Origin: Alkalisalibacterium limincola
GTDB lineage: Bacteria > Pseudomonadota > Gammaproteobacteria > Xanthomonadales > Xanthomonadaceae
Assembly (NCBI RefSeq): GCF_008017755.1
Contig: NZ_VRTS01000007.1
Location: 140,501 to 204,500 of the forward strand
Length of the DNA stretch: 64,000 bases
Direction: 5' to 3'
The notes under the pieces: model-generated
Told to the model about the DNA's origin: nothing
Database searches by the model: none
Seen by the model: only the letters and a program-made list of their open reading frames with translations
Shown here: piece after piece, positions 14,552-60,769 of the stretch
Numbering within the stretch: the stretch's first letter is position 1
How the letters are laid out: each line of letters starts with the position of its first letter
Position numbers and translations under genes: made by a program

Positions 14552-14653
14552 CGTGTGGGGCCCAGCGGCTGGAGGGAGCCGCGAATTATAACGGGCCGGG
14601 CGGTCCGGGGTCGGCGCGCGGCATGCGCCGGGGTGCGCAACGGCGTCGAGGCG

Positions 14654-16680: not shown

Positions 16681-16681
<1 letters not shown>
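15764..16681 (-). CDS. prmA: ribosomal protein L11 methyltransferase
   Basis: 305 aa; SAM-binding motif [15 protein letters not shown]; ATG overlaps accC stop (ATGA). Confidence 0.9.
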
Positions 16682-18048
<1,367 letters not shown>

Positions 18049-18059
18049 GGGAATTGCCT

Positions 18060-21929: not shown

Positions 21930-21934
21930 TGGAT

Positions 21935-22285
21935 TCAAACCGGTGGATCCTTTGGCGTGGCCGCTGGCGGGGTCGTGGTTTCGCTGGCGACCCATTCGAG
22001 GTAACCGGGCAGGCCGGCGACGATTTCGACAGCGATGATCTCGGGAAGTTCGTACGGGTGCGCCTCGCGCAGCAGCTCGCGCAGTGCCGGCCAGGCCGCC
22101 TGCGTCGTCTTGAGCAGCAGCACGACTTCGTCGGCCGTCTCGATCTCGCCTTCCCAGCGGTAGGTCGACACGGCACCCGGCAGGGCCGTGGCACACGCGG
22201 CCAGGCGGGCCTGGACCGCACTCTTCGCGAGGCGCGTGGCGGTGTCGGAATCGGGGCAGCTGCAGTGGACGAGGTAGGCGGGCAT
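21935..22285 (-). CDS. cutA: divalent-cation tolerance protein CutA
   Basis: 116 aa; MPAYLVHCSCPDSDTATRLAKSAVQARLAAC...; cutA-dsbD operon arrangement. Confidence 0.85.
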   Translation of the reverse strand: MPAYLVHCSCPDSDTATRLAKSAVQARLAACATALPGAVSTYRWEGEIETADEVVLLLKTTQAAWPALRELLREAHPYELPEIIAVEIVAGLPGYLEWVASETTTPPAATPKDPPV

Positions 22286-22371
22286 CGGGCGTGGGGTCCT
22301 GCGCGGTGCGGCTTGTCTGGCGGCGGCGCCGCGCCCAAGATGAAGGCCTGTCCAGCCTGCGAGCGCCACAC

Positions 22372-23754
22372 CGGATGCACACACAGCCACTCTTGGAACA
22401 GGCCCGCCAGGCTCGTCGGGCCGGCGCGCTGTCCGCGGCGGAGGCATGTTACCGCGAATACCTGCGGCACCGCTGCGAGGACGACGAGGTGTTGCAGGAG
22501 CTGGCCGGGGTGCTGTTCGACATGCAGCGCGTGGGCGAGGCGGAGGCGACGATCGAGCAGGCGCTGGCGCTGCGGCCGGATGCACCCGACCTGTTGTTCA
22601 ACCGCGCCATGGTGCGCCGCGCGCTGGATCGGCCCGAGCTGGCCCTGGCCGACCTCGACGCGGTGGTCGCCGCGGTGCCGTGGCAGGGAGCGGCGCGGCT
22701 GCATCGCGGCGTTCTGCGTTCCGACCTCGGGCGCCTGCAGGAGGCGCTGGAGGATTTCGAGCACCTGCAGCGCGAGGAGCCGCAGCGGCTGGAGGGACAT
22801 TTCAATGCGGGCCTGGCGCTCACGCGCCTGGACCGTCACGGCGAGGCGATCGCCAGCCTGCAGCGGGCGCGCGCGATCGCGCCGAGATCGGTGCCGGTGC
22901 TGCGCGGCCTGGGCAATGCACTGCGCGAGGGCGGTCGGGCGGCGGAGGGGCTGGAGGTGCTGCGCGAGTGCGTGGCGCTGGACGCCAACGATGCCGCCAG
23001 CCTCGGCGACCTCGGCATGTGCCAGTTGGCCGCCGGGCAGCCGGGCGAATCCGTGCAAAGCTTCCAGCGCGCGCTGGCGCTGGACCCGCGCGACCAGACC
23101 GCGCTGGCCGGCTGGTACCTGGCCAGCAACGACGCCGGTGCGAGCGAACAGGCGCGGCTGCTGTTCGACCCGGCCCTGATCGGCCACGGCCAGCTGGTCC
23201 CGGAAGATCCGGACGCATTGCGCGCCGCGGTGCTCGACCATCCGCAACTGCGCTGGGAGCCGACCGGCAAGACCACCCGCAAGGGGGAGCAGACCGCTTT
23301 CCTGGACCTGTCGCCGGGCTCGCCGTTCGCCGGCCACGGCGCGCAGGTGGCGAAGGCGGTGGCGCAACGCATCCAGGCCCTGCTCGACGACCCGACCCTG
23401 TCGGCGCATCCGTGGATGAAGGGGCGGCTGTCGCGCTGGCGCCTGCGCATGTGGGCCACCGTGCTGCGCGAGGGCGGGCACCAGGCCCCGCACATCCACC
23501 CCTCGGGCTGGATGAGCGGTGTGTTCTACCTCGACGATGGCGACGCCGACCCGCAGGCGGGGCAGGGCGGCACGATCGTGTTCGGCCGCGGTCCCGACGA
23601 GCTGGCCCTGCAGGCACCGCCGCTGGAGTGGTCGCACCAGCCCGCCACCGGCGAGCTGCTGCTGTTCCCGTCCTACTTCCACCACCACACGCTGCCCTTC
23701 GCCGGTCGCGGCGTGCGCATCAGCCTGGCCTTCGACGTGGTGCCGCGCGGCTGA
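22372..23754 (+). CDS. TPR-repeat protein with C-terminal 2OG-Fe(II) oxygenase-like domain
   Basis: Multiple TPR-like repeats; C-terminal HIHPSGWMSGVFYL...FPSYFHHHTLPF resembling PF13759-type oxygenase fold. Confidence 0.6.
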   Translation, partial: RMHTQPLLEQARQARRAGALSAAEACYREYLRHRCEDDEVLQELAGVLFDMQRVGEAEATIEQALALRPDAPDLLFNRAMVRRALDRPELALADLDAVVAAVPWQGAARLHRGVLRSDLGRLQEALEDFEHLQREEPQRLEGHFNAGLALTRLDRHGEAIASLQRARAIAPRSVPVLRGLGNALREGGRAAEGLEVLRECVALDANDAASLGDLGMCQLAAGQPGESVQSFQRALALDPRDQTALAGWYLASNDAGASEQARLLFDPALIGHGQLVPEDPDALRAAVLDHPQLRWEPTGKTTRKGEQTAFLDLSPGSPFAGHGAQVAKAVAQRIQALLDDPTLSAHPWMKGRLSRWRLRMWATVLREGGHQAPHIHPSGWMSGVFYLDDGDADPQAGQGGTIVFGRGPDELALQAPPLEWSHQPATGELLLFPSYFHHHTLPFAGRGVRISLAFDVVPRG

Positions 23755-28428: not shown

Positions 28429-30014
28429 AGCGCTTCGCGGGGCTCTACCAGGCGCTCGATCGGAGCACCGGCAGCCTCGACAAGCGAGCCGCACTGGTCG
28501 CCTACTTCCGTGAAGCACCGGCCCACGATGCCGCCTGGGCGCTTTGGTTCCTGTCCGGCGGCAAGCTGCGCCGCATTGCGTCCGGGCCGGAGCTGCGTGC
28601 GTGGCTGGGCGAGGTCACCGGGCACCCGGACTGGCTGGTCGAGGACAGCTACCAGCACGTCGGCGACCTCGCCGAGACGCTGACGCTGCTGGTCCACGAA
28701 CCGACGCCGGATGCGCTCGTGGAACGGGCCCTGCACGACTGGGTCGAGCAGCACCTCCAGCCCGTCGCCGGGGGGGCGGAGGAAACCCGTCGGGCCGCGG
28801 TGGTCGAGGGTTGGCGTGGGCTGCCCGAGGGCGAACGACTGGTGTTCAACAAGCTGATCACCGGGGCACTGCGCGTGGGCGTGTCGCGGCGCAGCGTGCA
28901 GCAGGCGCTGGCCGAGCTCGGCGGCCTGGACATCGCGCTGATCGCGCAGCGCATGATGGGCGAGTGGACCCCGACGCCGGACACCCTGGCGTCGCTGCTG
29001 TCGCGGCAGCTCTCCGACGCAGACCGGCGCCAGCCCTACCCGTTCTTCCTCGCCTCGCCCCTGCAGGACGAACCTTCCGGGCTGGGCCCGCCGGGCGACT
29101 GGGTGCTGGAGTGGAAGTGGGACGGCATCCGCCTGCAGTTGCTGCGTCGCGCCGGTGACGTGGCGCTGTGGTCGCGCGGCGAGGAACGGCTGGACGGCCG
29201 TTTCCCGGAGATCGAGCGGGCGGCGATGGCGCTGCCCGACGGCTGCGTTCTCGACGGCGAGCTGGTGGCCTGGGATGACGACGCCCCGGCGCCGTTCACC
29301 CGCTTGCAGCGGCGCATCAACCGGCTCAAGCCGAGCGCACGGCTCATGGACGAGGTGCCGGTGGCGGTGCTGGTGTATGACCTGCTGGAACTCGACGGTC
29401 AGGACCTGCGCGCGCAGCCCCTGCACGAACGACGCGACGCGTTGGAGGCGTTGCTAGATGTCCACGGTGGGCCCGAACTGCGGCTGTCCCCGCTGCTGGC
29501 GCCCGGCGACTGGGTCGAGGCCGCCGCGCTGCGCGAGGACGCCCGCGAACGGGGTGTCGAGGGCTTGATGATCAAGCGTCGCAGCGGCCCCTATCGGCAG
29601 GGGCGTCCGCGCGGGGACTGGTGGAAGTGGAAGGTCGATCCGCTGACGATCGATGCGGTGCTGATCTACGCCCAGGCCGGCCACGGTCGCCGCAGCACGC
29701 TGTTCACCGATTACACGTTCGGGCTGTGGGACGGCGAGACGCTGGTACCGGTGGCCAAGGCCTACTCGGGCCTGGACGATGCCGAGATCGCGAAGCTCGA
29801 CCGCTGGATCCGCGGCAACACGATCGAGCGTTTCGGACCGGTGCGTTCGGTGCGTGCCCACCACGTGTTCGAGTTGGGCTTCGAGGCGGTCAACCGGTCC
29901 ACGCGGCACAAGTCCGGCATCGCGGTGCGCTTCCCGCGCATCCTGCGCTGGCGCAGCGACAAGCCCGCCGCCGAGGCCGACCAACTCGAGACGCTGCGGG
30001 AACTGGCCCGGTGA
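28425..30014 (+). CDS. ATP-dependent DNA ligase (LDDR cluster)
   Basis: GTG start overlapping upstream stop (GTGA); adenylation domain with KxDG-type lysine motif (EWKWDGIR), OB-fold C-terminus. Confidence 0.85.
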   Translation: MKRFAGLYQALDRSTGSLDKRAALVAYFREAPAHDAAWALWFLSGGKLRRIASGPELRAWLGEVTGHPDWLVEDSYQHVGDLAETLTLLVHEPTPDALVERALHDWVEQHLQPVAGGAEETRRAAVVEGWRGLPEGERLVFNKLITGALRVGVSRRSVQQALAELGGLDIALIAQRMMGEWTPTPDTLASLLSRQLSDADRRQPYPFFLASPLQDEPSGLGPPGDWVLEWKWDGIRLQLLRRAGDVALWSRGEERLDGRFPEIERAAMALPDGCVLDGELVAWDDDAPAPFTRLQRRINRLKPSARLMDEVPVAVLVYDLLELDGQDLRAQPLHERRDALEALLDVHGGPELRLSPLLAPGDWVEAAALREDARERGVEGLMIKRRSGPYRQGRPRGDWWKWKVDPLTIDAVLIYAQAGHGRRSTLFTDYTFGLWDGETLVPVAKAYSGLDDAEIAKLDRWIRGNTIERFGPVRSVRAHHVFELGFEAVNRSTRHKSGIAVRFPRILRWRSDKPAAEADQLETLRELAR

Positions 30015-32439
30015 AGGCGCAGCTGGAGGCCTGGTTTGCCGGGCAGGGTTGGGCGCCGCTGGCGTTCCAGCGCCGCACCTGGCGACACTACCTGGCCGGT
30101 CGCAGCGGCCTGCTGCATGCGCCGACCGGCAGCGGCAAGACACTGGCGGTGTGGGGTGGGCCCCTGCTGGCTGCGGCCGGCCACGCGCCGCGGCCGCGGA
30201 GCACGCCGAGGCTGCGGCATCTGTGGATCACCCCCCTGCGCGCACTCGCCGCCGATACGGTGCAGGCCCTGCAGGCGCCGCTGCCGGCGATGGGCCTGGA
30301 CTGGCGCGTCGGCCTGCGCACGGGCGATGCCAGCGCCCGCGACAAGCGCATCGCCCGGCGCGGCGAGGTCGACGTGCTGGTGACCACGCCGGAAAGCCTG
30401 GCGCTGCTGCTCAGCCACGACGACACCGCCCCGGTGCTGGCCGGGCTGGAGGGCGTGGTGGTGGACGAGTGGCACGAGTTCCTCGGCACCAAGCGCGGCG
30501 TGCTGCTGGAGCTGTGCCTGGCACGGCTGCGCGGCCTGCAACCGGCGCTGCGCGTGTGGGGCCTGTCGGCGACGCTGGGGAACCTGGAGCAGGCGCGCGA
30601 CGTGCTGTTGCCGCACGCGCCCGAAGCGCCACTGGTGCATGGCGTGCGCCGCCGCCGACCCGACATCGAGACGCTGCTGCCGGCCAGCGGCGAACGCTTC
30701 GCCTGGGCCGGCCACCTCGGGCTGGGGCAGCTGGGCCGGGTGGTGCAGGCGCTGGGCCAGGCGCGCACCAGCCTGCTGTTCACCAACACGCGCTCGCAGG
30801 CGGAGCTGTGGCACCAGGCCCTGGCCTCGGTGTGGATGGAGGATCCGGCCACGCTGGCGATCCACCATGGCTCGCTGGATCCGAAGATGCGCCGACAGGT
30901 CGAGCAGGCGCTGGGCGCGGGCACGCTGCGCTGCGTCGTGGCGACCTCGAGCCTGGACCTGGGCGTGGACTTTCCCGCCGTGGACCAGGTGCTGCAGATC
31001 GGAAGTCCGCGCGGCATCGCGCGCCTGCTGCAGCGCGCCGGGCGCAGCGGCCACCAGCCCGACGGGCGCAGCCGCATCCTGTGCGTGCCGACCCATGCGC
31101 TGGAACTGCTGGAGTTCGCCGCCGCGCGCGAGGCGCTGCGGCGTGGAGACATCGAATCGCGACTGCCGCTGCGCCACGCGCTGGACGTGCTGGCCCAGCA
31201 CCTGGTGACCCGGGCGCTGGGCGGCGGATTCATCGCCGCGGACATGCTGGCCGAAGCGCGTGCGACCCATGCCTTTGCCGACCTGGACGGCGACACGTTC
31301 GCCACGGTGCTGGAGTTCACCGTGCAGGGCGGCGCGGCGCTGTCGAGCTATCCCGACTTCCAGCGGCTCGAGCGCGACGAGGGCGGCATGCACGTGCTGG
31401 GCGATCGCCGCCAGGCGCTGCGCCACCGCCTGTCGATCGGCACGATCCTCAGCGACGGCAGCGTGCAGGTGCGCTTCCTCAAGGGCGGCCGGCTGGGAAC
31501 GGTGGAGGAGGGGTTCATCAGCCGCCTGGCGCCGGGTGCGCGCTTCGCGTTCGCCGGGCGCACGCTGGAGCTGGTCCGGTTTCGCGACATGACCGCCTGG
31601 GTGCGCCTGGCACCGGGAGGTCGCGCCGGACCCACCCGCTGGATGGGCGCGCGCATGCCCCTGTCGGGTGAGCTGGGAGAGGAGGTGCGGCGCATCGTCG
31701 CCGACCCCGGCATCCGCGCCCCCGAGATCCACGCCGCTGCGCCCATCCTGGCCTTGCAGGCACGGCTCAGCGTGCGCCCGGCACTGGACGAGCTGCTGGT
31801 CGAAACCCTGGTCCGGCGGCAGCAGCGCTACCTGATGCTGTATCCGTTCGCCGGGCGCCAGGTGCACGAGGGCCTGGCGGCGCTGCTGGCCCTGCGCTGG
31901 GGGCGGCGCGAGGCGAACAGTTTCAGCTACGCCGTGAACGACTACGGCCTGGTGCTGGTGACCGCGCGCGAGGTCGATGTCGACGAGGCCCTCCTCACCG
32001 CGCTGCTTGGCGGCGCGGACCTGCTGGAGGAACTGCAGGCGTGCATGAACCTGGGCGAGCTCTCGCGTCGCCAGTTCCGCGAGGTGGCCCGCATCTCCGG
32101 CCTGGTGGGGCCGACGCTGCCCGGTCGCGCCGCGAAGACGCTGCGTCAGTTGCAGGCCTCCAGCGGCCTGATCTTCGATGTGCTGCAGCAGCACGACCCC
32201 GGCCACGTGATGCTGGAGCAGGCGCGTCGCGACGTGCTGGAGTCGAGCCTGGAGGTGGCGCGGCTGCGCGCGACCCTTGAGCGCATGGCTGGCTGGCGGC
32301 TGCGTCTGCAGCGGCCGAAGTCGCTCACGCCGCTGGGCTTCCCGCTGTGGGCGGAAAGCTTCCGCGCAGCCTCAGCACCGAGGACTGGAGCACCCGCGTG
32401 GCCCGCGCGGCGGCCCAGCTGGAGCGCCGTTTCCAATGA
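30011..32439 (+). CDS. ligase-associated DEXH-box helicase (Lhr-like; frameshift near 32365-32385)
   Basis: Walker A (HAPTGSGKT), DEVH (VVVDEWHEF), helicase C motifs; true C-terminus ...STEDWSTRVARAAAQLERRFQ is in the +1 frame and its TGA overlaps pdeM ATG. Confidence 0.85.
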
Positions 32440-33104
32440 GCCAGCCGCTGTCCATTGTCGTGGCGGGCTGGCCGATGCAGGCCTGGGGACAGCGGGCGCT
32501 GTTCTGGCCCGAGGTGGGGATGCTGGTGATCGCCGACCTTCACCTGGGCAAGGGGGACGTGTTCCGGCGTGGCGGCATCCCGCTGCCCGGCGGTGGCACC
32601 GCCGGCGACCTGCAGCGGCTCGGCCAGCTGGTGGAGGCGACCGCTGCCCGGCGGCTGATGATCCTGGGTGACGTGCTGCACGGTGCCCTGAACCGGGAGG
32701 CGCCCTGGTTGTCCACGTGGGACAGCTGGCGGGCGCGGCATGCGACGCTTTCGGTGGAGGCGGTCCTGGGCAACCACGATCGTGCCCTCGACGCGGAACG
32801 CCTGGGACTGCACGTGCATGGAGAGGAGCATCGCCAGGCCGACCTGGTGTTTCGCCACGAACCCGTGGCCAGCGCCGAGGGGCATGTGCTGGCCGGTCAC
32901 GTCCATCCGGTCCGCCGCGTGCGCGCGGTGGGACTCTCCGCGCGGCTGCCCGTGTTCTGGCTGTCACCGGACTGCAGCGTGCTTCCGGCCTTCTCCGCGT
33001 TCACCGGCGGCTTCGAGGTGCGACCACGGCCGGGCGACCGCCTGCTGGCCTGCACCGGCAAGACGGTCATTGCGCTCCCGGTGGCCGGCCGGAGCAATTC
33101 CTGA
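32436..33104 (+). CDS. pdeM: ligase-associated DNA damage response metallophosphoesterase PdeM
   Basis: Calcineurin-like motifs (LVIADLHLGKG, ILGDVLHG, GNHD, GHVHP). Confidence 0.8.
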   Translation: MSQPLSIVVAGWPMQAWGQRALFWPEVGMLVIADLHLGKGDVFRRGGIPLPGGGTAGDLQRLGQLVEATAARRLMILGDVLHGALNREAPWLSTWDSWRARHATLSVEAVLGNHDRALDAERLGLHVHGEEHRQADLVFRHEPVASAEGHVLAGHVHPVRRVRAVGLSARLPVFWLSPDCSVLPAFSAFTGGFEVRPRPGDRLLACTGKTVIALPVAGRSNS

Positions 33105-38878: not shown

Positions 38879-39850
38879 TCAGTCCCCAAGGGGACCCAGT
38901 TGCAGGTCTAGCCGCAGGCGGGTGGAGACGCGTTCAAGCTCGCGCAGCGGCTTGGTCTGGCCGGAGGGCGCCTGGTCCGACAAGGGTCGGACGCGCCCCA
39001 GCTCCAGCAAGTTGTCGAGGAAGACCCGCTGGCGGCCGGTGCAGCGGTCGATACCGGGCACGCAGACCGGTGCCGGGGTGGCGCAAGCCTCGGAGATCAT
39101 GTTCACGGAGTCCGGCGAGGCGACGATGACGTCGGCCCAGGCCAGCATGCCGGGGAAGGGGTTGTCGCCGTCGGCCGGTCCGCACCACCGTGCGCCCTGC
39201 CAATCGGGCCAGGCGGCACGCGCCGACTCGACCAGCCATTGCGGGGTGCGTGGCGAGCAGGCCAGCATCAGGCTGCCGCCAGCCTGTGCCCGCCAGGACT
39301 GCAGATTGTCGCGGACGATCTGCCACCAGGCCGCGTCGATCGGTGCCGCGCGCACCGGGCCACCCAGCAACACCAGCACCCTCGGACCCGGCAGCCGGCC
39401 GAGTTCGGGCCATTGCATGCGTGCATCGGCCAGCCAGGCGTCGTCGACCGGGTTCAGGCTGCCCGACAAGGTGTACACATTGGCCCCGCGCAGACGGTCG
39501 TGCGCCGGCACCACCACCGCGTCCCAGTGGCGGCTGTCGATGCGCGGGTCGAGGATCTGCACGGCGCGACTGCCGCGCTCGCGCAGCAGTCGAGTGGCCA
39601 GCGCGGCCTGGCGGCCGCAACCGATGACCAGTCGCGGTGGGCTGCGCAGCGCCTGGGTGAACTCCGTGCCCCAGGCACCATCGCTCCCGGGCAGGTGGTG
39701 CGGCGCCAGCCAGCGCCACGGGGCCCGCGTGGCCAGCGTGAACTCGCGCGCCGGGGCGTCGACCAGGGCACCGGCCAGCGCCCGCGCCTGGCGCAGGTTG
39801 CCGGCGCGACCGTCGGTGAGGATCCAGCAGTTGTCCTGGGTGGCGCTCAT
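38879..39850 (-). CDS. ELM1 / DUF1022 family protein (predicted nucleotide-sugar-dependent enzyme)
   Basis: Family-like motifs PRLVIGCGRQAA and VIVASPDSVNMISEACAT; start taken at MSATQDN (39850), upstream ATG at 39892 possible. Confidence 0.6.
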   Translation of the reverse strand: MSATQDNCWILTDGRAGNLRQARALAGALVDAPAREFTLATRAPWRWLAPHHLPGSDGAWGTEFTQALRSPPRLVIGCGRQAALATRLLRERGSRAVQILDPRIDSRHWDAVVVPAHDRLRGANVYTLSGSLNPVDDAWLADARMQWPELGRLPGPRVLVLLGGPVRAAPIDAAWWQIVRDNLQSWRAQAGGSLMLACSPRTPQWLVESARAAWPDWQGARWCGPADGDNPFPGMLAWADVIVASPDSVNMISEACATPAPVCVPGIDRCTGRQRVFLDNLLELGRVRPLSDQAPSGQTKPLRELERVSTRLRLDLQLGPLGD

Positions 39851-39894
39851 CGCGCGAGTATAGGCTTCGAGCCCTCTGCGACCACTCGTCATGC

Positions 39895-39961
39895 ATCACA
39901 TGTAATTAGTCCAAGAAGTCACATGTGATGTATTGACGCTGTCACATGTGATGTGTATCTT
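39895..39961 (+). promoter_or_regulatory. operator/promoter array: three CACATGTG-type palindromes phased 23 bp apart, overlapping TTGACG-N17-TATCTT
   Basis: CACATGTa at 39897, CACATGTG at 39920 and 39943 (latter two as TCACATGTGATGT); -35 TTGACG 39933-39938, -10 TATCTT 39956-39961, ATG at 39969 (near-leaderless). Confidence 0.4.
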
Positions 39962-39968
39962 GTGTTCC

Positions 39969-41300
39969 ATGGAACGAAAGACCTCCGCCTATTACCAGCG
40001 CCGGCATCGCGAGCGCCTTCGCGAGCAGGGGCTGGTGAAGAAGGAGTTGTGGATCCTGCCGGAGTTCGGGGATGAACTCGCGGCTGTGGAGCGACGGATG
40101 CGCCAGCCGCGAGGCACGGTGCCCATTCAACAGGAGAGTGAGATGAGCGAGCCGAAGGTCTGGACCGCCAAGGCGCTTTACGAAGCGTTGAAGGCGACCG
40201 AACAGTTCCAGGGGGGCACGGCCACGGCCGAGCTGCTGGAGGGCGCCGAGCCCAGCCTGCACCTGGTGATGCACGAGTACGGCGACCTGCCGCTGTTCCT
40301 GGCGGTGGTCGGTGAGCAGATCGTGGTCGAGTCGCTGCTGTGGCCACAGTCTCAGGTGCACGACATCGCCGCGTTCAACGACGAGCTGCTGCGCACCCAC
40401 AAGATGTTCCCGCTGTCGACGGTCGGCATCGAGGACCTCGATGGCGATGCGGTCTACATCATGTTCGGTGCGCTCGATGCGCGCTCGTCGCTGTCCAACG
40501 TCGTGTTCGAGATCGACACGCTGGCCGACAACGTCATCAAGGCCACCGAAGCCTACGAAGCCCACCTGAAGGCGCTGCCTGAGGCAGCCACGAGGAGACA
40601 GAGCATGAACATCTGGAGCAAGTTGATCACGGCGCTGCGCGGCGGGGCCAACGAGGTGGGCGAGGCGGTGGTCGATGGCCAGGCGCTGCGCATCCTCGAC
40701 CAGGAGATCCGCGACGCCGACGCCGAGCTGCGCCGGTCCAAGGAGGCGCTGGCCGAGATCATGGCCAAGCTGAAGCTGGCCGAGGTGCGCCTGGCCGAAT
40801 CCGAGAAGAAGGTCGGCGAGTACGAGGCCTACGCGATGAAGGCGCTGGACTCCGGTGACGAGAACCTGGCCCGCGAAGTGGCGGGCAAGATCGCCACGAT
40901 GGAGCAGTCGCGCGACGGCGAACGCCAGCAGGTCGAGGCGTTTACCGCCAGCGTGGCCGACCTGCGCCGCGCGGTCAGCCAGGCCGAGGGCAACATCCGC
41001 CGGCTCAAGCAGCAGGTGGACACGGTCAAGGCGACCGAGAGCGTGCAGCGCGCGCAGGCGACGGTGGCGCACCGCTACAGCGGTTCGCAGTCGAAGCTGA
41101 CCACGGCGCTGGACTCGCTGGAGCGGGTGAAGAAGAAGCAGGCCGAGCGCGGCGCGCGCATGGAGGCGGCGGCCGAGCTGGCGCGTGACGAGGGCACCGA
41201 CGCGGTCGACACCAAGCTGCGCGATGCCGGCATCCTGGCCGACGCGGCCAGCACCGAGTCGGTCCTGGACCGCCTCAAGAGCAAGCGCGCGACGGGCTGA
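39969..41300 (+). CDS. single stop-free ORF containing three modules: DUF3018-like RHH basic domain, YjfI-like DUF2170 domain, PspA/IM30 (YjfJ-like) coiled-coil domain
   Basis: MERKTSAYYQRRHRERLREQGLVKKELWILPEF (DUF3018-like); MSEPKVW...FLAVVGEQIVVESLLWP...MFGALDARSSL (YjfI-like); MNIWSKLITALRGG...ILDQEIRDADAELRRSKEALAEIMAKLK... (PspA-like); internal AGGAG-ATG signals before the second and third modules but no stop codons. Confidence 0.7.
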   Translation: MERKTSAYYQRRHRERLREQGLVKKELWILPEFGDELAAVERRMRQPRGTVPIQQESEMSEPKVWTAKALYEALKATEQFQGGTATAELLEGAEPSLHLVMHEYGDLPLFLAVVGEQIVVESLLWPQSQVHDIAAFNDELLRTHKMFPLSTVGIEDLDGDAVYIMFGALDARSSLSNVVFEIDTLADNVIKATEAYEAHLKALPEAATRRQSMNIWSKLITALRGGANEVGEAVVDGQALRILDQEIRDADAELRRSKEALAEIMAKLKLAEVRLAESEKKVGEYEAYAMKALDSGDENLAREVAGKIATMEQSRDGERQQVEAFTASVADLRRAVSQAEGNIRRLKQQVDTVKATESVQRAQATVAHRYSGSQSKLTTALDSLERVKKKQAERGARMEAAAELARDEGTDAVDTKLRDAGILADAASTESVLDRLKSKRATG

Positions 41301-41386
41301 GCCTGTCGCGAGGGGGGTGGTCCGGCAGGGGTGCCGGGCCGCCGGGGAGGAACGGGCGCAAGCCCGTCGGCTGAGGGGAGGTCGCC

Positions 41387-42025
41387 ATGGAAGAGTTCCT
41401 GCGCATCGCGCTGTCGTTCCCGACACTGGTGTTCAGCATCCTGCTGGCGGTGTCGGTGGCGTACTGGGCGCTTGCCGCCACTGGAATGCTGCACATCGAT
41501 GCACTGGACGGGTGGGTGGCGCCGGACATCGATGGCATCGAAGTGGACGGCCTGGCCGGCCTGCTGATGCGTTTCGGGCTCGGCGGCCTGCCGCTGATGC
41601 TGATCCTGACCGTGCTGTTCTTCGTGGCGTGGCTGCTGACCTATTTCGCCGACTACCTGCTGCTCAGGCACATGGACATCCCGGTGCTGAGCTGGCTGCT
41701 GGGCCTGGCGGTCATGCTGGGCGCGCTGGTCGCCGGCGTCGTGGTGACCAGCGTGGTGCTGCGGCCTTTGCGGGGGCTGATGGCACGGCTGGCGCCACCG
41801 GCGATGCGTTCGGTGATCGGCCAGCTGGCAGTGGTGCGCACCCCCACGGTGAGCGCAACACACGGCCAGGTCAGCGTCGAGGATGGCGGCGCCGGTCTCA
41901 TCCTGAATGTGCGTTGCGACCAGGGCCGGGACTTCCAGCGCGGCGACCGGGTCGTGTTGATCGAATACCTGGAGGCGGAAAACGCCTACCGGGTCATGGC
42001 TGAAGACGAATTCCACGGGCGTTGA
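41387..42025 (+). CDS. NfeD/YqiJ-like membrane protein with C-terminal OB/beta-barrel domain
   Basis: Several TM helices then ...TVSATHGQVSVEDGGAGLILNVRCDQGRDFQRGDRVVLIEYLEAENAYRV; positioned directly upstream of flotillin as in yqiJK/nfeD-floT pairs. Confidence 0.6.
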   Translation: MEEFLRIALSFPTLVFSILLAVSVAYWALAATGMLHIDALDGWVAPDIDGIEVDGLAGLLMRFGLGGLPLMLILTVLFFVAWLLTYFADYLLLRHMDIPVLSWLLGLAVMLGALVAGVVVTSVVLRPLRGLMARLAPPAMRSVIGQLAVVRTPTVSATHGQVSVEDGGAGLILNVRCDQGRDFQRGDRVVLIEYLEAENAYRVMAEDEFHGR

Positions 42026-42067: not shown

Positions 42068-43996
42068 ATGAATTTCGACCTCGCGCTGCTGCTGCCCTTC
42101 CTGATCGGGTTTGTCGTACTGGTCATCCTGGTCATGGGCCTGTTCGGCCTGTTCAAGGCCTTCTACATCAAGGTGCCCCAGGGCACCGCGCTGATCGTGA
42201 ACGACCTGTCGCCGCAACCCAAGGTGCACTTCACCGGTGCCCTGGTCTACCCGGTGATCTACAAGAAGGAGTTCATGAAGATCTCGCTGATCACCCTCGA
42301 GGTGGACCGGCGGGGCAAGGACGGATTGATCTGCCGCGACAACATGCGCGCCGACATCACCGTCGCCTTCTACCTGCGCGTCAATGAGACCGCGCAGGAC
42401 GTGCTGAAGGTGGCCAAGGCCATCGGCGTGGACCGGGCCTCGGAGAAGGGCGCGGTCAACGAGCTGTTCAACGCCAAGTTCTCCGAGGCGCTCAAGACCG
42501 TCGGCAAGCAGATCGACTTCGTGAAGCTGTTCGAGAACCGCCAGGAGTTCCGCGACTCGATCGTCGAGGTGATCGGCAACGACCTCAACGGCTACGTGCT
42601 CGAGGACGTCGCGATCGACTACATCGAGCAGACCCCGCGCAGCTCGCTGGATCCGTCCAACATCCTCGACGCCGAGGGCATCCGCAAGATCACCGAGCTC
42701 ACCGCGGCGCAGAACGTAATCACCAACGAGCTCGAGCGCAACGAAGAGCTGGCGATCACCAAGAAGAACGTCGAGACGCGAGAGGCGATGCTGGCGCTGG
42801 AGCGGCAGCAGGCCGATGCCGAGGCGCGGCAGAAGCGCGAGATCCAGACGATCAAGGCCCGCGAGGAGGCCGAGACGGAGAAGGTGCGCGAGGAGGAGCG
42901 CCTGAAGGCCGAGAACGCGCGCATCCAGACCCAGGAGCAGATCGACATCCGCGAGGAGAACCGCCAGCGCGAGGTCGAGGTGGCGCAGCAGAACCGCCAG
43001 CGCGCGGTGGTCATCGAGGTCGAGAAGGTGACCCGCGCCCGCGACCTGGAAGTCGTCTCGCGCGAGCGTGAGGTCGAGCTGCAGCGCATCGAGAAGGAAA
43101 AGGCGATCGAGGAGCAGCGCAAGGAGATCGCCAACGTGATCCGCGAGCGCATCGTGGTCGAGAAGTCGGTGGCGCAGGAGGAGGAGCGCATCAAGGAGGT
43201 GCGCGAGGTCTCCGAGGCCGACCGCCTCAAGCAGGTGGCGATCCTCAATGCCGAGGCCCAGGCCGAGGAGGAACTGGTGCGCCAGGTCAAGCAGGCCGAG
43301 GCCGAGGAGACCGCCTCGAAGCACAAGGCGGTCGAGATCACCACGATCGCGCAGGCCGAGCTGGAGGCCGCCGGCAAGAAGGCCGAGTCGCAGAAGAAGC
43401 TGGCCGAGGGCATCGAGGCCGAGCGCGCCGCGCCGGGCCTGGCCGACGCACGGGTGCGCGAGATCACCGCCGCGGCACTGGAGAAGGAAGGCCTGGCCGA
43501 GGCGCGCGTGATCGCCGAGAAGATGGGCGCCGAGGCCAAGGGCGAGTCCTCGCTGGCCGAGGCCCGTGCCAAGGCGACGCGCGACGTCGGCCTGGCCGAG
43601 GCCGAGGTGCTGCGCGAGCGCTTCCGCTCCGAGGCCGAGGGACTCACCGAGAAGTTCGGCGCCCTCGAGCAGCTGGGCGACAGCGCACGCAGCCACGAGG
43701 AGTTCCGCATGCAGCTGGAGAAGAACTTCGAGCAGGCCATGGCGTCGATCGAGGCCGGCAAGGACATCGCCCGCGAGCAGGCCGAGGTGCTGTCGGCGGC
43801 GCTGTCGAAGGCCAAGATCGACATCGTCGGCGGCGAGGGCGAGTTCTTCAATTCCTTCGCCAAGGCGCTGTCGGTCGGCAAGGCCATCGAAGGCGTGGCC
43901 GGCAAGAGCCCGGTCGTGCAGGACATGCTCAAGCGGCTGATGCCGCAGATGGGTTCTTCCGCCGAGGGCGAGGCCAAGCCACCGGCCGACGCCTGA
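42068..43996 (+). CDS. flotillin (SPFH/Band-7 family, YqiK-like)
   Basis: N-terminal TM anchor, SPFH domain, very long Glu/Ala/Arg/Lys-rich coiled-coil; 642 aa. Confidence 0.85.
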   Translation: MNFDLALLLPFLIGFVVLVILVMGLFGLFKAFYIKVPQGTALIVNDLSPQPKVHFTGALVYPVIYKKEFMKISLITLEVDRRGKDGLICRDNMRADITVAFYLRVNETAQDVLKVAKAIGVDRASEKGAVNELFNAKFSEALKTVGKQIDFVKLFENRQEFRDSIVEVIGNDLNGYVLEDVAIDYIEQTPRSSLDPSNILDAEGIRKITELTAAQNVITNELERNEELAITKKNVETREAMLALERQQADAEARQKREIQTIKAREEAETEKVREEERLKAENARIQTQEQIDIREENRQREVEVAQQNRQRAVVIEVEKVTRARDLEVVSREREVELQRIEKEKAIEEQRKEIANVIRERIVVEKSVAQEEERIKEVREVSEADRLKQVAILNAEAQAEEELVRQVKQAEAEETASKHKAVEITTIAQAELEAAGKKAESQKKLAEGIEAERAAPGLADARVREITAAALEKEGLAEARVIAEKMGAEAKGESSLAEARAKATRDVGLAEAEVLRERFRSEAEGLTEKFGALEQLGDSARSHEEFRMQLEKNFEQAMASIEAGKDIAREQAEVLSAALSKAKIDIVGGEGEFFNSFAKALSVGKAIEGVAGKSPVVQDMLKRLMPQMGSSAEGEAKPPADA

Positions 43997-44137
43997 GCCC
44001 GGCCACCCCCCGGCCGAGCCTGGCCGGGGGTGGGACGATACGCCGGGTGAGCCCGGCACACCATGGATGCAGGTCGCGCGGCGGAAGCTTCCGTCGCCGT
44101 GGCCGGATCGGCCCGGCACCGGGCAGGACGGAGAGGC

Positions 44138-47100
44138 ATGGCTGAGAAGACCCCCGACACCGATACCGCCGCCGAGTCCGGCGTGGTCGACCGCGCGGTC
44201 GCCGAGGGCGGCGCCTACGAGGTGCTGCAGCGGCGCTTGCTGGACCAGGGCGCGCGCCTGCGCGGGCTGGCCGAGTCGCTCAATGCCAAGCGCCTGGAGC
44301 AGTTCGGCAGCAGCCGCATGGAGGTGGCCGGCCGGGTTCGGGTGCGCACCGAGCACAACTGCGTGGCCCGCGACATCGTCCAGGTCGGCTCGATGCTGCT
44401 GTTCGGCTACAACGTCTTCATCGGTTTGAAGAAGGAAACCCGGGTCGAGGACGTCTTCTCGCTGTACCGCCTCGACGAGCGCGAGCAGGGTTACGAGGTG
44501 GTGCCGGTCGACCTGGCCGACAGCTTCCTGGCCGATCCGGGCTTCGTGCGCGACTTCAACGAGCTCTACGCCTACTACAAGAGCGCCCGCCTGCTGCAGC
44601 TCTCCAGCCGCGACGACCGGGTGTTCGCGGTGTTCCAGATCGGCGAGCGCATCAGCGACGTGCGCGTGTTCCGCTGGAACACCACGGGTGGCCAGGTGCG
44701 CTATGTCGACAACCGCGGCGAGCGCGATGTCGAACTGCCGGCCGCGTTCGACTTCGAGTGGACGCCGACCACCCGCGAGATGGTGGTCAACGGCCCGCAC
44801 CCGCACGTCAACATCCTCGACACCGTGTTCGTCGAGACGATCGGCGGGCAGCTGACGGTCAAGATCGAGAACAACACCCGCGACGGCCGCGGCATCTTCA
44901 GCGAGCCCGTCGACGACCAGACCCAGTCGCTCGACGACGCGCAGATCCAGTTCGCCCGCATCGGCGACCTGGTGCTGCTGAAGATCCGCCCCTACCGCGA
45001 GGAGCGCTGGCGCTACCTGGTCTACAACACGCTCACCCGCAGCGTGCAGCGCATCGACGCGATCGGTCAGGCCTGCATCCAGCTGCCCGAGGACCACGGC
45101 ATCATCTTCCCGGGCGGCTACTACCTGCCCAACGGCGACACCCGCGCGTTCGAGCAGTCGATGGAAGGCATGCGCTTCAAGCGCATGATCCGCTCGCCCA
45201 ACGGCGAGGACGTGCTCTACATCTTCTACGAGCCCGAGGGCGGGCGCACCGCGCTGTTCACCTACAACATGATCGAGCGCAGGCTGACCACGCCGATCTT
45301 CGGCCACGGCTGTGCGCGCCTGGACGACGGGCGCATGGTGATCTTCTCCAATGCGTCCGACGAGCCGACCCGCATCCACCCGATGCAGGTGTGGATCACG
45401 CCGTTCACCAGCGAGGAGTACGCGGCGGCGCAGCCGGCCGGCGAGGGCTTCATCGCGCGCATCGGCAACGCCGAGCTGGTGCGTGGCGTGTCCGACCTGC
45501 TCAGCCTGGCGCGCGAGATCGACGCCGAGGCGGTGTCGGTGCAGCGCTACGAGCTGCTGGTGCAGAACACGCGCCGGCTGTTCGACCTGCACCACTGGGT
45601 CGAGGACCGCGAGAGCAGCGACGTCGGCAAGCTGCTGCACGAGATCGCCGCGACCGGCGAGTCGGTGCTCGACGAGTTCGAGAAGGTCGAGGGCATTCGC
45701 GCCGAGTCGGCGCAGGCGATGGCGTCGGCCGAGGAACGGCACCGTGACCTGATGGCGCGTGCACAGCCCCGCGACTGGAAGTCGGTGGGCGAATTCGTCG
45801 CGATGCTCGATGAGCTCGCCGCACTGCGCGGCCACCTGCTGACGATCCGCGACTACCGCTATGTCGACGTCGAGCGCATCGACGCGATGGAGGCCGAGCT
45901 GCTCGAGGCGCACGAGCGCGTGGGCGTGGCCACCGGCGACTTCCTCGCCGGGCCCGACGCGCTGGCACCGTTCGGCGAGCGCCTGCAGGCACTCGACGAG
46001 GCCGCTTCCGAAGCCGACACCGCGGCACAGCTGCGCGAGCCGCTGGCCGGCATGGAGGCGATGTCGGGCGAGCTCGACACGCTGTCGGACTCATGGCCTC
46101 GCTGCGGGTGGAGGACGCGACGCAGCGCACCGCCATCGTCGAGGCGATCTCGGCGATCTACGCGCGGCTCAACCAGGCCAAGGCGCGGCTGGAGCAGCGT
46201 CGCCGCGGCATGGGCTCGGCCGAGCGCGTGGCCCAGTTCGGTGCCCAGTTCACGCTGTTCGGGCAAAGCATCACCGGGGCGCTGGCGATGGCCACCGACC
46301 CGGAGCGCTGCGACGAGCAGCTCTCGCGGTTGCTGGTGCAGCTCGAGGAGCTGGAAAGCCAGTTCGGCGAATACGAGCAGTTCCTCGGCGACATCCTGGC
46401 CAAGCGCGAGGAGCTGCTGGAGACCTTCGACGCGCACCGCCAGGCGCTGGTCGACGACCGCCAGCGCCGAGCCCACGCCGTGGGCGACGCGGCGATGCGC
46501 ATCCTGGAAGGCCTGGGCCGGCGTACCGCGCGGCTGCAGGATCCCGACGCGCTCAACGCGTTCTTTGCCGGCGACCCGCTGATCGTCAAGCTGCGCGAGC
46601 TGGCCGGCCGGCTGCGCGAGCTGCACGACAACGTGCGTGCCGACGATGTCGAGGCGCGTCTCAAGGCGGCCCGTGATTCCGCGGTGCGCGGCCAGCGCGA
46701 CCGCAGCGAGCTGTTCGAGGACGGTGGCAACATCATCCGCCTGGGTCCCCGCCACCGCTTCACGGTCAACACCCAGGAACTCGACCTGACCATCCTGCCG
46801 CGTGGCGACGGGCTGAGCGTGCACCTGACCGGCACCGACTACTTCGAACCGATCCGCGACGAGGCACTGGAGTCGCTTCGCCCCTATTGGCAGGTTTCGC
46901 TGGAGTCCGAATCACCGCAGATCTATCGCGCCGAATACCTGGCCGCGCGCATGCTGGAGGCGGCACGCGCGAATCGCGACGAGCTCGACATGGATCGCCT
47001 GCGCGAACTGGTCAAGCAGCCCGAGGCACTGGACCGGGCGATCCGCGACTTCGCCGCGCCGCGCTACCGCGAAGGCTACGAGCGCGGCATCCACGACCAC

Positions 47101-49428
47101 GACGCCGCGCGCATCCTGCAGGCGCTGGTGCCGATGCACGAGAGTGCGGGGACCCTGGCGCATGCGCCACAGGTGCGCGCACTGGCGGTGCTGTTCTGGT
47201 CGGAGCGGGCCGAGCAGGCACCGGCCGCGGGCTGGCCGGGGAGGGCGCGCACCGCCAGCGACATCCAGCGCCTGTTGGGAAGCGGAGCGGGGCTGGAATC
47301 GCTGCGCATCGAGGTGGCCGCGACCCTCGAGGACTTCATCGCGATGCACGCGCTGCCGCTGGAGCCCACGCTGGCGCCGCGGGCGGCGACCTACCTGGTG
47401 GCCGAGCTGGCCGCCGAGCACGCCCGCTTCGCATCGAGCCAGTACGCGCGACGGCTGCTCGATGGCTTGCGCGGGAAGCTGGAGGCGGCACATGCCTGGG
47501 ACGGCTTCATCGCCTCGCTCGATGCCCTTGGCGACCGACTGGCCGCGCGCTGGCAGCTCGCCCACGACTGGCTGGGCGCGCTGGTGGCCGAGCCGGATTT
47601 CCAGGCGCTGGCCGACTACGTGCCCGAAGCCGCGGCACGGCTGGTGGCCCGGGGCGACTTCCCCTGGCGCGACGAGTCCGCCGACCTGCGCGTGCAGGTC
47701 GAAGGATTGCTGGGCGACCACGCGCGCATCGCCGGGGGCGGCCTCGTCATCGGCGTGGACGAGTTCGCCGAGCGCATGGCCGCGCACGAGGTCTTCGTCG
47801 AGGGCGTGCGCGCGTTCCAGGCGCTGCGCCAGCAGGTGGTGGCGCGCGAGCGCGAGGCGATGCGGCTGGAGGAGTTCAAGCCGCGCCCGCTGACCTCGTT
47901 CGTGCGCAACAAGCTGATCAACGACGCCTACCTGCCGGTGATCGGCGACAACCTGGCCAAGCAGATGGGCGCCGCCGGCGACGACCGCCGCAGCGACCTG
48001 TCGGGCCTGCTGATGATGATCTCGCCGCCGGGCTACGGAAAGACCACGTTGATGGAGTACGTGGCGCACCGGCTCGGCCTGATCTTCATGAAGATCAACG
48101 GCCCCTCGCTGGGCCACGAGGTGCGTTCGCTCGACCCGGCCCAGGCGCCGGACGCGACCTCGCGCCAGGAACTGGAGAAGCTCAACCTGGCCCTGGAGAT
48201 GGGCAACAACGTGATGCTGTACGTGGATGACATCCAGCACACGCACCCGGAATTCCTGCAGAAGTTCATTTCCCTGTGCGACGGCACCCGCCGCATCGAG
48301 GGCGTGTGGCGCGGGCGCACCCGCACCTACGACATGCGCGGCAAGAAGTTCTGCGTGGTCATGGCCGGCAACCCGTACACCGAGTCCGGAGAGGTGTTCA
48401 AGATTCCCGACATGCTGGCCAACCGCGCCGATGTCTACAACCTCGGCGACGTGCTCGGCGGCATGGAGGAGGCGTTCACGCTGAGCTACATCGAGAACAG
48501 CCTGACCTCTAACCCGGTGCTGGCGCCGCTGGCCACGCGCGACCTGGGCGACGTCTATCGCTTCGTCGACAAGGCGCGCGGGCGCGAGGTGTCGGCCAAT
48601 GCGTTCAGCCACGCCTACAGCGCGGCGGAGACCGCCGAGATCGTCGGCACGCTCAAGCGCGTGATCCAGCTGCGCGACGTGGTCTACCGGGTCAACCAGC
48701 AGTACATCGCCAGCGCCGCCCAGGCCGAGGCCTACCGCACCGAGCCGCCGTTCCGGCTGCAGGGCAGCTACCGCAACATGAACCGCCTGGCCGAAAAGGC
48801 CTCGCCGGTGATGAACGACCAGGAGATGCAGCAGCTCCTCCACGACCACTACATCGGCGAGGCGCAGATGCTGACCGCCGGCGCCGAGGAGAACCTGTTG
48901 AAGCTGGCCGAGCTGCGCGGCGTCATGACGACCGAGCAGCAGGCTCGATGGGACTCGATCAAGCGCGACTTCATGCGCAACCGGGCCATGGGCGGCGCCG
49001 ACAGCGATGTCGGTGGGCGCGTGGTGGGCCAGTTGAGCGATCTGGTGGAAGGCGTGCGCGCGCTCAAGGAGTTGCGGGGTGGCACGGAGGCGGCCGACCC
49101 CGGGGCGACGGTGGCGCCGCTGGTGGCGGCCCTGGAGGCGATTGCCCAGCGCATGCAGCCGGCCGCGGAAGAGAGCGGGGCGGCGAAGGCGGCCTCGATC
49201 GTCGCGCGCGGCGTGCACTCCGGGATCCGTGAGGCGCTCTCGCCGCTGGCCACCTCGCTCGACGACCGCCTGGAGGTGTACGAGCTGATGACGAAGGTCG
49301 TCGCCAACCTGCGCGAAACCCCTGCGCGCGGCGGTGCCCGCCGGAGCCAGCGGGAAATCGAGCTCGACGAGGCGCTGGAGGCGTTCTCCAAGCGGCTGCG
49401 CGAGCGCTCCGGCCCCGGCGGGTCCTGA
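44138..49428 (+). CDS. very large uncharacterized protein with AAA_5/MoxR-type ATPase domain (two ORFs joined by a probable frameshift near 46085-46095; ~1,760 aa)
   Basis: Walker A (ISPPGYGKTTLMEY), Walker B (VMLYVDDIQH), sensor-1-like (VVMAGNPYT) in second ORF; first ORF (to ~46090) ends in Arg/Ser-rich nonsense while the +1 frame starts MASLRVEDATQRTAIVEAI... 2 nt later. Confidence 0.65.
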
Positions 49429-59544: not shown

Positions 59545-59654
59545 CGGGGTACTACCTTTTAGTGAACTTGTGAGTTTAAATATTGGCCGACGGCGCCGCA
59601 AGGCGCGCGCGTGCTGGCACGGGCCATTGTGCGCCCAGGATGGGGAAGCTGACG

Positions 59655-60769
59655 ATGCGACGAGCGATCCGTTCCAAGGTGGGGCTTGCGGTGCTGCTGG
59701 GCAGCCTCGTGCTGTCGGCATGTGGCGCGCAGCCCTCCGGCAACGACCAGGGCCGTCCGGTCATGGTGGTGCAGCCCGAGCTTGCCGAGGCCGGGGCCAG
59801 CGTGTTCCCCGGCGAGGTCCGTGCGCGCCATGAAGTGGCCCTGGCGTTCCGGGTCGGGGGCGAGGTGGTGCGCCGGGTGGCCGAGGTCGGCGACGCCGTG
59901 GAGGAGGGTCAGGTGCTGGCCGAGCTCGACCCCAGCGACACCGGGTTGCAGGTCGATGCGGCGCGTGCCCGGCTGGCGTCGGCCGAGGCCGACCGGGTCG
60001 TGGCGCGCGCCGAGCGCGATCGCTTCGCGTCGCTGGCGGAGCGGCAGCTGGTGAGCCGGTCGATCCTGGACAACGCCGAGAATGCGCTTGCCGGTGCGCA
60101 GGCGAGGCTGGACCAGGCGCGTGCCGACCTGGAGGTGAGCCGGAACCAGTCCGGCTACACGACGCTGCGGGCGCCGGTGCCGGCGTCGTGGCCGAGCGGC
60201 AGGTCGAGACCGGCCAGGTGGTGGCGGCAGGACAGCCTGTATACGTGCTGGCGATGGACGGAGAGCGCGAAGTGGTCATCGCGGTGCCCGAACAGCGGCG
60301 CGAGGCCTTCGAGCCAGGCCGGACGGTGATGGTGGAGCTGTGGTCGCAGCCCGGCGAGCCGGTGCCGGGCGAAGTGCGCGAGCGTGCCCCCTCGGCCGAT
60401 CCCGGTGCGCGCACCTATGCGGTGCGCGTCGCGTTCGACGCCGACGTGCTGGGGGCACAGCTGGGCCAGAGCGCGCGCGTCCATGCCCGCGAGAACGGCG
60501 GCGCCAAGCTGGCCCTGCCCCTCTCGGCGGTCAGTGCGGAGGAGGGCCAGGCCTTCGTCTGGCGACTCGATCCCGCGACTTCCACCGTGCAGCGCCAGCC
60601 GGTCGAGGTGGCCGCGTTCGGCGACACCCGGGTGCGTCTCGCCGCGGGGCTGGAACCCGGTGACTGGGTGGTGCTGGCCGGCGTCCACCTGCTGCGCGAG
60701 GGCCAGCGCGTGAGCGCGGTGGATCGCGGGAACCGACCGGTGCAGGCCAGCCCAGCGCAGGCACCGTGA
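59655..60769 (+). CDS. RND efflux periplasmic adaptor (membrane fusion protein) lipoprotein (frameshift near 60180-60195)
   Basis: Lipobox LVLSAC; HlyD-like coiled coil; C-terminal beta-barrel part in ORF 60188-60769. Confidence 0.8.

Follow-up and report, generated by a model that had tools for sequence, protein, structure and literature searches.

The 64,000-nucleotide stretch of Alkalisalibacterium limincola DNA analysed here (RefSeq assembly GCF_008017755.1, contig NZ_VRTS01000007.1, positions 140,501–204,500; the whole stretch is called the window below) holds on its forward strand the start of an ordinary bacABCDE operon of a Lysobacteraceae member with 70% G+C, the first two genes of which, bacA and bacB, are read as one uninterrupted frame. 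This BacA–BacB join is most probably (probability about 0.8) not biology but a sequencing or assembly error due to a single G missing after position 40574. An original prediction, made from the sequence alone, had read the frame as a possible tripartite fusion, a design with nested starts or the loss of two stops, preceded by a triplet of palindromic operators for which its own product was a candidate binder. The fusion is not borne out: its first two modules are a standard BacA and the join between the second and the third is best explained by one missing base. The locus joins a known operon family, and its residual interest lies in a testable regulatory model for BacA.

The open reading frame (ORF) itself is as predicted, a single stop-free frame of 443 codons running on the forward strand from ATG 39969 to the stop at 41298–41300, in which Pfam recognizes DUF2170 at residues 65–200 and PspA_IM30 at residues 214–440. 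In all 26 related loci that were read across the BacA–BacB junction, bacA has its own stop codon, followed by a spacer of 20–50 nt with a purine-rich Shine-Dalgarno-like stretch and then by the bacB ATG. Such stops in orthologous loci, which the original prediction had itself taken as the mark of ordinary separate genes, refute the tripartite-fusion hypothesis. At the site of the deletion, BacA ends in ...AA* in all of L019, L020, L021 and L001–L004; the bacA end of L021 is CTG AAG GCG GCC GCC TGA (...HLKAAA*) and that of L019 is AGG GCG GCC GCC TGA, whereas the window has CTG AAG GCG CTG CCT GAG. One G added after 40574 gives GCG GCT GCC TGA and the same ...HLKAAA* terminus as in the closest relatives (fused reading at 40572–40582, GCGCTGCCTGA; repaired reading from 40572, GCGGCTGCCTGA). 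After this repair, the 204 amino acids of BacA equal the length of P0121–P0124, and BacB has 231 amino acids (40605–41300), as in L019 and L021. The missing G would thus shift the retained TGA out of frame and, by chance, set bacB in frame. The eight spacer codons that become a "linker" in the window contain no stop, which is unremarkable at 70% G+C. The domain boundary proposed at residues 211/212 has to be moved to 212/213, the BacB methionine being residue 213.

In the databases searched, the open junction no more recurs as a conserved multi-domain fusion than it does in the orthologs. When 1.84 billion representatives were searched exhaustively with HMMER, none of the best 150 of 1217 hits was a full-length BacA–BacB fusion; they cover either residues 1–202 or residues 213–440, essentially one half of the query each. 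Only two proteins, P0002 and P0294, carry both domains. Each is a single-member, single-contig Logan protein, their junctions are different and truncated, the BacA N-terminal module is missing from both and the N-terminal helix of BacB is also gone (sequences read by eye); they were therefore rejected as conserved fused homologs. A 378-amino-acid "P. aeruginosa" protein spanning bacA and bacB (P0008) was set aside as an odd gene call, the DNA of its locus (L022, 6001–7331, P. aeruginosa PAMH19) having a normal bacA stop. Spurious joins at the bac operon are also encountered outside the window, in public P. aeruginosa assemblies: P0022 is BacB read through into BacC, and P0021 is BacB read through into an unrelated ABC-type sequence.

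The first two modules, which had been said to occur normally as separate genes, belong to a single protein. The BacA model of NCBIfam (NF050185) is matched with 343.1 bits against a cutoff of 300 (E = 4e-103), residues 1–202 covering positions 1–204 of 206 of the profile, PF09938 (DUF2170, YjfI, CesT/Tir-like) is matched by residues 65–200 (174.4 bits, cutoff 27), and the structure of P. aeruginosa BacA (PDB 8q8o) by residues 61–202 (E = 4e-47). A database search with residues 1–211 found 1458 homologs, the closest of which are 204–217 amino acids long overall and start at residue 1; the nearest ones (80–83% identity, 204–210 amino acids) are from Marilutibacter, Luteimonas and Montanilutibacter. 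The N-terminal module is found in 153 of 162 DUF2170 homologs among the fetched proteins, and never without DUF2170. Residues 1–48 are the most conserved part of BacA, with 19 invariant positions including R11, R14, R18, G21, K24, K25 and W28. In comparisons with Lysobacteraceae relatives, the changes within this module are mostly synonymous and at third positions (19 synonymous to 2 non-synonymous codons versus L020), whereas versus the loci of P. aeruginosa and Bacterioplanes, which are more distant, non-synonymous changes are about equally frequent. This pattern of substitutions clearly indicates that the N-terminal module is translated and under purifying selection, and the protein matches identify modules 1 and 2 as one normal BacA of 204–217 amino acids. 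It is extremely improbable that the ORF would nonetheless have evolved as a tripartite fusion, or that its nested starts would reflect selection of one frame for three products. Both internal starts do keep an AGGAG–N6–7–ATG signal, the first of them being conserved in other genera, but besides the identity of modules 1 and 2 with BacA, the stop found at the module 2–3 junction in every relative, the paucity of fused homologs (none conserved among 1.84 billion representatives, and two singletons with a different junction) and the bacB frame, which differs from the bacA frame in most relatives, all argue against it.

The deletion at the bacA–bacB junction is taken as a technical error because one-base frameshifts also affect four further genes of the window (Table 1). 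They were detected by a frame scan based on the G+C content of codon positions (GC3), followed by domain and homolog checks. In bacE, two overlapping ORFs (44063–46582 and 46093–49428) share one gene: tblastn alignments with the BacE proteins of L020, L021 and L022 leave frame 2 and continue in frame 1 at 46087–46090, and DUF7902 is divided between the two ORFs (profile positions 1–45 and 46–84). The two halves of purH both align to PurH of Mycobacterium tuberculosis (3zzm_A), joining at residue 152, and one G restored in dsbD (GCGAC to GCGGAC) would rejoin its parts. The fourth gene encodes a bactofilin. All five frameshifts, bacA included, can be mended by a single base added beside an identical one (GG or CC), the repair being based on alignment to relatives for bacA and bacE and on three-frame translations read by eye for purH, dsbD and bactofilin. 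The window thus has at least five one-base frameshifts, including one that breaks a core gene of purine biosynthesis. Five lesions of the same kind point to a systematic assembly error rather than to five independent pseudogenes, and an assembly error is likewise indicated by the fact that a housekeeping gene such as purH is broken. Two further candidates, accC/prmA (15764–18288) and Lhr/metallophosphoesterase (29381–33104), were rejected as they are separate genes, and a histidine-kinase pair (1787–4582 and 4000–4374), the short ORF of which has no Pfam match, was not counted. A possible sixth frameshift lies at 59580–60769 on the forward strand, where an HlyD-family membrane-fusion domain (profile positions 116–202 of 214) is found in ORF 59834–60769 and the coding signal that precedes it follows a different frame (59580–60329), in an ORF devoid of Pfam match.

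If the deletion were instead a real and recent mutation of the strain, a 443-amino-acid BacA–BacB fusion would be made together with free BacB initiated at the AGGAG–ATG signal at 40593–40607, which would leave the putative repressor BacA permanently linked to the partner predicted for it. The frame is indeed open as sequenced, with the Shine-Dalgarno sequence and ATG of bacB intact; BacA–BacB interaction is predicted, so a tethered form could be tolerated, and the second frameshift in the same operon, that of bacE, could mean operon decay. Such a mutation is however unlikely, as frameshifts of the same type also affect the unrelated purH, dsbD and bactofilin genes, as the deletion is common to no relative, and as the codons past the deletion still read GCT GCC TGA, which implies that the event, if real at all, is extremely recent. 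The case for a technical error is limited in that DNA of the same species was not found: genome and metagenome scans gave nothing above ~79% identity and protein searches gave at most 83%, and because no sequence closer than 79–83% was found, a real strain-specific deletion keeps a share of the probability. Under the preferred reading of a technical error, the three-module protein should not be propagated in annotation, a point that matters to annotators of this assembly.

Upstream of the repaired bacA, a 76-bp region contains 11-nt repeats at 39896, 39919 and 39942 with an exact spacing of 23 bp. The triplet of palindromes that had been predicted is therefore present as three exactly spaced sites, but the exact octamer CACATGTG occurs in only two of them (39920 and 39943, the only exact copies), the copy at 39897 being CACATGTA. 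This octamer is not significant alone (at least two copies in 27 of 100 shuffles) and was rejected as the motif. The informative form is YYACATGTRR, with three matches in 64 kb, all upstream of bacA (0.28 expected; three reached in none of 100 shuffles). The predicted TTGACG–N17–TATCTT promoter, overlapped by the palindromes, is confirmed as the sole sigma-70-like match in 39700–41500 (shuffles gave 0.1), and the gap between its −10 box and the bacA ATG, given as eight nucleotides, is corrected to seven (39962–39968).

This arrangement was compared in 24 non-redundant bacA regions from Lysobacter, Luteimonas, Marilutibacter, Montanilutibacter, Pseudoxanthomonas, P. aeruginosa, Bacterioplanes and metagenomes. 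In 22 of these loci, T[TC]ACATGT[GA]A has its centre at −22 or −23 relative to the ATG, and the remaining two (L013 and L014) have the one-mismatch variant TTTCATGTAA at this position. A second site at −44 to −46 is found in most non-Pseudoxanthomonas lineages (Lysobacter, Luteimonas, Marilutibacter, Montanilutibacter, P. aeruginosa and Bacterioplanes), and a third at −66 to −68 in the window, L005 and L019–L021, Bacterioplanes included. Read by eye in the aligned sequences, the layout in the relatives consists of a TTGAC-type −35 box, a 17–18 nt spacer holding the palindrome, a −10 box, 6–9 nt and the ATG. Within the 110-nt segments that precede bacA, ACATGT shows an enrichment of ~200-fold over the remainder of the loci and occupies fixed positions (−22, −45, −68), whereas none was found upstream of 10 DUF2170 genes lacking the N-terminal module. 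The palindrome is thus statistically unexpected, and its placement with respect to the −35 and −10 boxes is maintained across species; from these alignments, the putative operator can be written as TYACATGTRA, present one to three times (−22, −45 and −68). The 10 DUF2170-only genes have an ordinary AGGAG Shine-Dalgarno sequence, and nine of them have another palindrome, GCCATAATATGGC, which would be an operator for a regulator different from BacA. It is present twice beside a TTGACT box, about 40–90 nt upstream of the DUF2170 gene, in L016–L018 and L030–L033, L035 has one truncated copy, and L036 and L038 have one related copy each (GTCATAATATGGC). On the other side of the operator region of the window, which it adjoins, lies a divergent ELM1-like gene (PF06258; 38879–39892, reverse strand). 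The start of this ORF is probably its second methionine (39850) rather than 39892, since residue 30 is the first one covered by its Pfam match; this would leave an intergenic region of about 118 bp, with O3 set apart from the start codon. The ELM1-like gene holds the place of a conserved ORF of 80–81 amino acids devoid of Pfam match, which immediately precedes bacA, in the same orientation, in the three closest relatives, L019 (2588–2833), L020 (5582–5827) and L021 (5673–5915).

The N-terminal module of BacA had been labelled a DUF3018-like ribbon-helix-helix protein. The first half of this label receives weak support, since the motif R-x-R-x-R-L-R-x-x-G-L-x-K-x-x-W-I aligns to positions 5–23 of 65 of PF11455 (MazE-like antitoxin, formerly DUF3018), which is matched by 24 of 36 homologous modules (best E = 2.2e-5). 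The second half is not supported, no ribbon-helix-helix fold or family match being found. AlphaFold predicts, with 65 sequences, a helix at residues 6–19, an extended segment at 20–30 (LVKKELWIL) and a helix at 31–44 (mean pLDDT about 76 for the module alone), followed by a disordered linker (residues 49–61) and a confident DUF2170 domain; as this order differs from the classical strand-helix-helix, the module was not classed as ribbon-helix-helix. With Foldseek, the module had a single hit in PDB, devoid of meaning (E = 5); PDB sequences searched with a profile yielded designed coiled coils only, and the DUF3018 literature, when searched, brought nothing on fold or function. As far as this evidence goes, the module is MazE-like and a putative DNA-binding one. 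Like MazE-like antitoxins, it is a short basic N-terminal segment and a small module in an autoregulatory context. Unlike them, it matches only the first third of the profile, has no toxin partner and is fused to DUF2170.

From these data, we infer that autorepression by BacA is the best model for the regulation of the operon. BacA dimers would bind to the palindromes O3, O2 and O1, which are spaced by about two helical turns (a duplex for a model of a BacA(1–60) dimer is TTACATGTAA); O1 lying between the −35 and −10 boxes and O2 just 5' of the −35 box, bound BacA would repress the sigma-70 promoter of its operon. The DUF2170 domain would ensure dimerization and partner binding, and the N-terminal module would be the DNA-binding part. 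BacA is the obvious candidate binder because module and operator co-occur, because the module is basic, and because it shows a MazE-like similarity that is weak but recurs. The model fits the derepression published for the P. aeruginosa ΔbacA mutant, in which BacB, C, D, E and F accumulate 6- to 13-fold (PMC10948618). The idea that the ORF encodes an autoregulator of the palindromes, already put forward in the original prediction, is thus supported by the comparison of 24 bacA loci that have the sites with 10 DUF2170-only loci that do not. Furthermore, an AlphaFold screen predicts that BacA binds BacB (PMC13092808), and a partner switch that would link BacB to the repressor activity of BacA appears plausible.

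Alternatively, the palindromes may be real but bound by a regulator encoded elsewhere, BacA being only a chaperone-like partner of BacB. The fold searches with the module, which gave nothing, and the published structure and discussion, which treat BacA as a protein similar to chaperones of the type III secretion system, are in line with this. Such a distant regulator is nevertheless quite unlikely, as it is at odds with the strict co-occurrence (24 loci with both module and motif, 10 DUF2170-only loci with neither), with the Arg/Lys-rich composition and MazE-like resemblance of the module, in which R14, R18, K24 and K25 are invariant and R16 nearly so, and with the derepression of the operon upon loss of bacA.

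Two translation starts can be distinguished in bacA. Its ATG has no Shine-Dalgarno sequence, and the upstream sequences of the relatives, read by eye, likewise have an ATG start codon 6–9 nt after the end of the −10 box and no Shine-Dalgarno sequence; because the −10 box of the window ends only seven nucleotides before this ATG, the long form of BacA is probably translated from a leaderless mRNA. Both internal initiation signals of the original prediction are present (AGGAG 40132–40136–N6–ATG 40143 and AGGAG 40593–40597–N7–ATG 40605), the second being that of bacB. The first receives some support as a nested start: GGAG–N6–8–ATG is conserved in the linker in the window, L001, L002, L005 and L019–L022, and this conservation is at the nucleotide level, the amino acids encoded at the GGAG being different (QQESE, REKG, KESG, GEMM, KEEED). 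Met59 is conserved in at least 90% of the sequences (alignment A2), and the 146-amino-acid form of BacA annotated and crystallized for P. aeruginosa begins at this position. The conserved GGAG–ATG may therefore give a second, DUF2170-only isoform, so that nested initiation is retained as a hypothesis for module 2 only. More tentatively, and with considerable doubt, BacA could be viewed as an autoregulator in two forms, i.e. a leaderless long form that would repress at TYACATGTRA through its MazE-like DNA-binding module, and a short form with internal start, devoid of the module, that could bind BacB or heterodimerize with the long form.

Several points weigh against this picture of BacA. DNA binding by the N-terminal module is what we infer from sequence, and the module of the window itself falls below the PF11455 threshold (15.8–16.5 bits versus 22, E about 0.01, profile positions 5–23 only). 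The internal methionine and its Shine-Dalgarno sequence are missing in the one Pseudoxanthomonas locus examined (L006). Finally, Wallart et al. (PMC10948618) suggested that the promoter of bacA is of the sigma-54 rather than of the sigma-70 type, and used a BacA of 146 amino acids that begins at the internal methionine (PDB 8q8o), for which they found a CesT/ExsC-like fold; this paper names neither a DNA-binding domain nor palindromes for BacA.

Table 1. Features of the bac locus and one-base frameshifts of the window (positions are those of the window)
Feature	Position	Strand	Description
Bactofilin frameshift	near 8200 in 7948–8369	+	Profile positions 1–64 in one ORF, 60–97 in an overlapping ORF in another frame
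purH frameshift	near 14107 in 12981–14653	−	MGS/IMP-cyclohydrolase part and AICARFT part in different frames
dsbD frameshift	near 20235 in 19696–22448	−	DsbD_N and DsbD_TM in one frame, C-terminal thioredoxin domain in another
Operator O3	39896..39905		TCACATGTAA; putative; 10 bp, one base short of a perfect palindrome, centre about −68 from bacA ATG
Operator O2	39919..39928		TCACATGTGA; putative; perfect 10-bp palindrome, centre −45, ends 4 nt 5' of −35
Operator O1	39942..39951		TCACATGTGA; putative; within the promoter spacer, centre −22
Sigma-70-type promoter	39933..39961	+	TTGACG 39933–39938, 17-nt spacer, TATCTT 39956–39961
bacA (repaired)	39969..40582	+	204 amino acids with one base restored after 40574
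BacA parts	39969–40112 (N-terminal module)		Basic N-terminal module (residues 1–48), variable linker, DUF2170 (residues 65–200)
Internal AGGAG–N6–ATG	40132..40145	+	Met59 (ATG 40143); start of the DUF2170 domain; candidate second start
One-base deletion merging bacA with bacB	40574..40575	+	GCG followed by CTGCCTGA in the window; GCG GCC GCC TGA in relatives
Ancestral bacA stop TGA	40580..40582	+	Kept in the window, one base out of frame
bacB	40593..41300	+	Shine-Dalgarno AGGAG 40593–40597; coding sequence 40605–41300, 231 amino acids, YjfJ/BacB-type PspA/IM30
bacC-like	41387..42025	+	Membrane protein, 212 amino acids; position and size (212–215 amino acids) as in L019–L022; no Pfam match
bacD-like	42068..43996	+	642 amino acids; N-terminal transmembrane segment, coiled-coil-rich region; no Pfam match
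bacE-like	44063..49428	+	AAA+ (DUF3686, DUF7902, AAA_5), ~1790 amino acids; broken by a one-base deletion near 46087
bacE frameshift	near 46087 in 44063–49428	+	Homologs go from frame 2 to frame 1; DUF7902 split

The genes that follow bacA are those of a bac operon, the order of the window (bacA first, then the PspA-like bacB, bacC, bacD and bacE) matching that of L019–L022 (Table 1). BacB matches PF04012 with 174.6 bits (cutoff 33.9), residues 214–440 of the 443-codon ORF covering positions 1–218 of 220 of the profile; its homologs begin at query residue 213 and its length is that found in L019 and L021. It reaches only 12.6 bits with the PspA equivalog TIGR02977 (cutoff 242.95), and is by these profile scores a YjfJ/BacB-type paralog, not PspA proper. 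The bacC-like gene would encode, by its position and the operon class described in PMC11237479 and without a sequence match, the YqiJ/YuaF-type transmembrane protein of this class. The bacD-like gene occupies the flotillin-type position of the genes of 663–688 amino acids of L020–L022, an assignment by synteny only.

The closest known system is the P. aeruginosa bac (biofilm-associated cluster) operon, bacA–bacF (PA3732–PA3729 and downstream; PA14_16140–16200). It has the same order, with BacA, BacB, a ~213-amino-acid membrane protein, a ~690-amino-acid protein at the flotillin position and a ~1750-amino-acid DUF3686/DUF7902/AAA protein. It also has TTACATGTGA palindromes, at −44 and −22 around a TTGAAA–N17–TAGTGT promoter that lies 6 nt from the ATG. 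Negative control of the operon by BacA is known from proteomics of this species only. The window differs by having three operators rather than two, by the lack of a bacF-type gene after bacE, where nitroreductase and YceI genes are found instead, and by its one-base deletions in bacA and bacE.

Escherichia coli YjfI, which we take to be a DUF2170-only protein, forms with YjfJ a dyad of the same kind. The yjfI–yjfJ pair shares with the window the combination of a CesT/Tir-like DUF2170 protein and a PspA-family protein (PMC11237479). The DUF2170-only loci L016–L018 and L030–L038 are unlike the bacA locus of the window, with their ordinary Shine-Dalgarno sequence and the palindrome GCCATAATATGGC instead of ACATGT. 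The operon of the window fits the class defined by Ravi et al. as "CesT/Tir-PspA dyad + band-7/flotillin + AAA+ + YqiJ/YuaF" (PMC11237479). PspF/PspA and the ExsC-type partner switches offer a further parallel, as the activity of a regulator would possibly be set there and here by a PspA-family or chaperone-bound partner, and as the DUF2170 fold of BacA is ExsC-like. They differ in that BacA would act as a repressor, through a DNA-binding module of its own, whereas PspF is a sigma-54 activator, and in that PspF, PspB and PspC are not present in the window; the partner-switch step itself would be, for BacA, a pure conjecture.

BacA has been published as a "possible regulator", to which the literature assigns neither a DNA-binding domain nor a target site. 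The comparison of bacA loci yields a testable model of its regulation, made of an operator, a module (residues 1–48), a leaderless sigma-70 layout and an internal start. The likely DNA-binding module is missing from the crystallized 146-amino-acid construct, and the operator, the module, the promoter layout and the internal start are all conserved in P. aeruginosa, where genetic tools exist. If the two-form scheme proves true, it would couple transcription of the operon to the availability of the membrane-stress protein BacB, call for a revision of the model published for P. aeruginosa (sigma-54 promoter, 146-amino-acid BacA), and provide the regulator so far missing from a widespread PspA–flotillin–AAA+ system.

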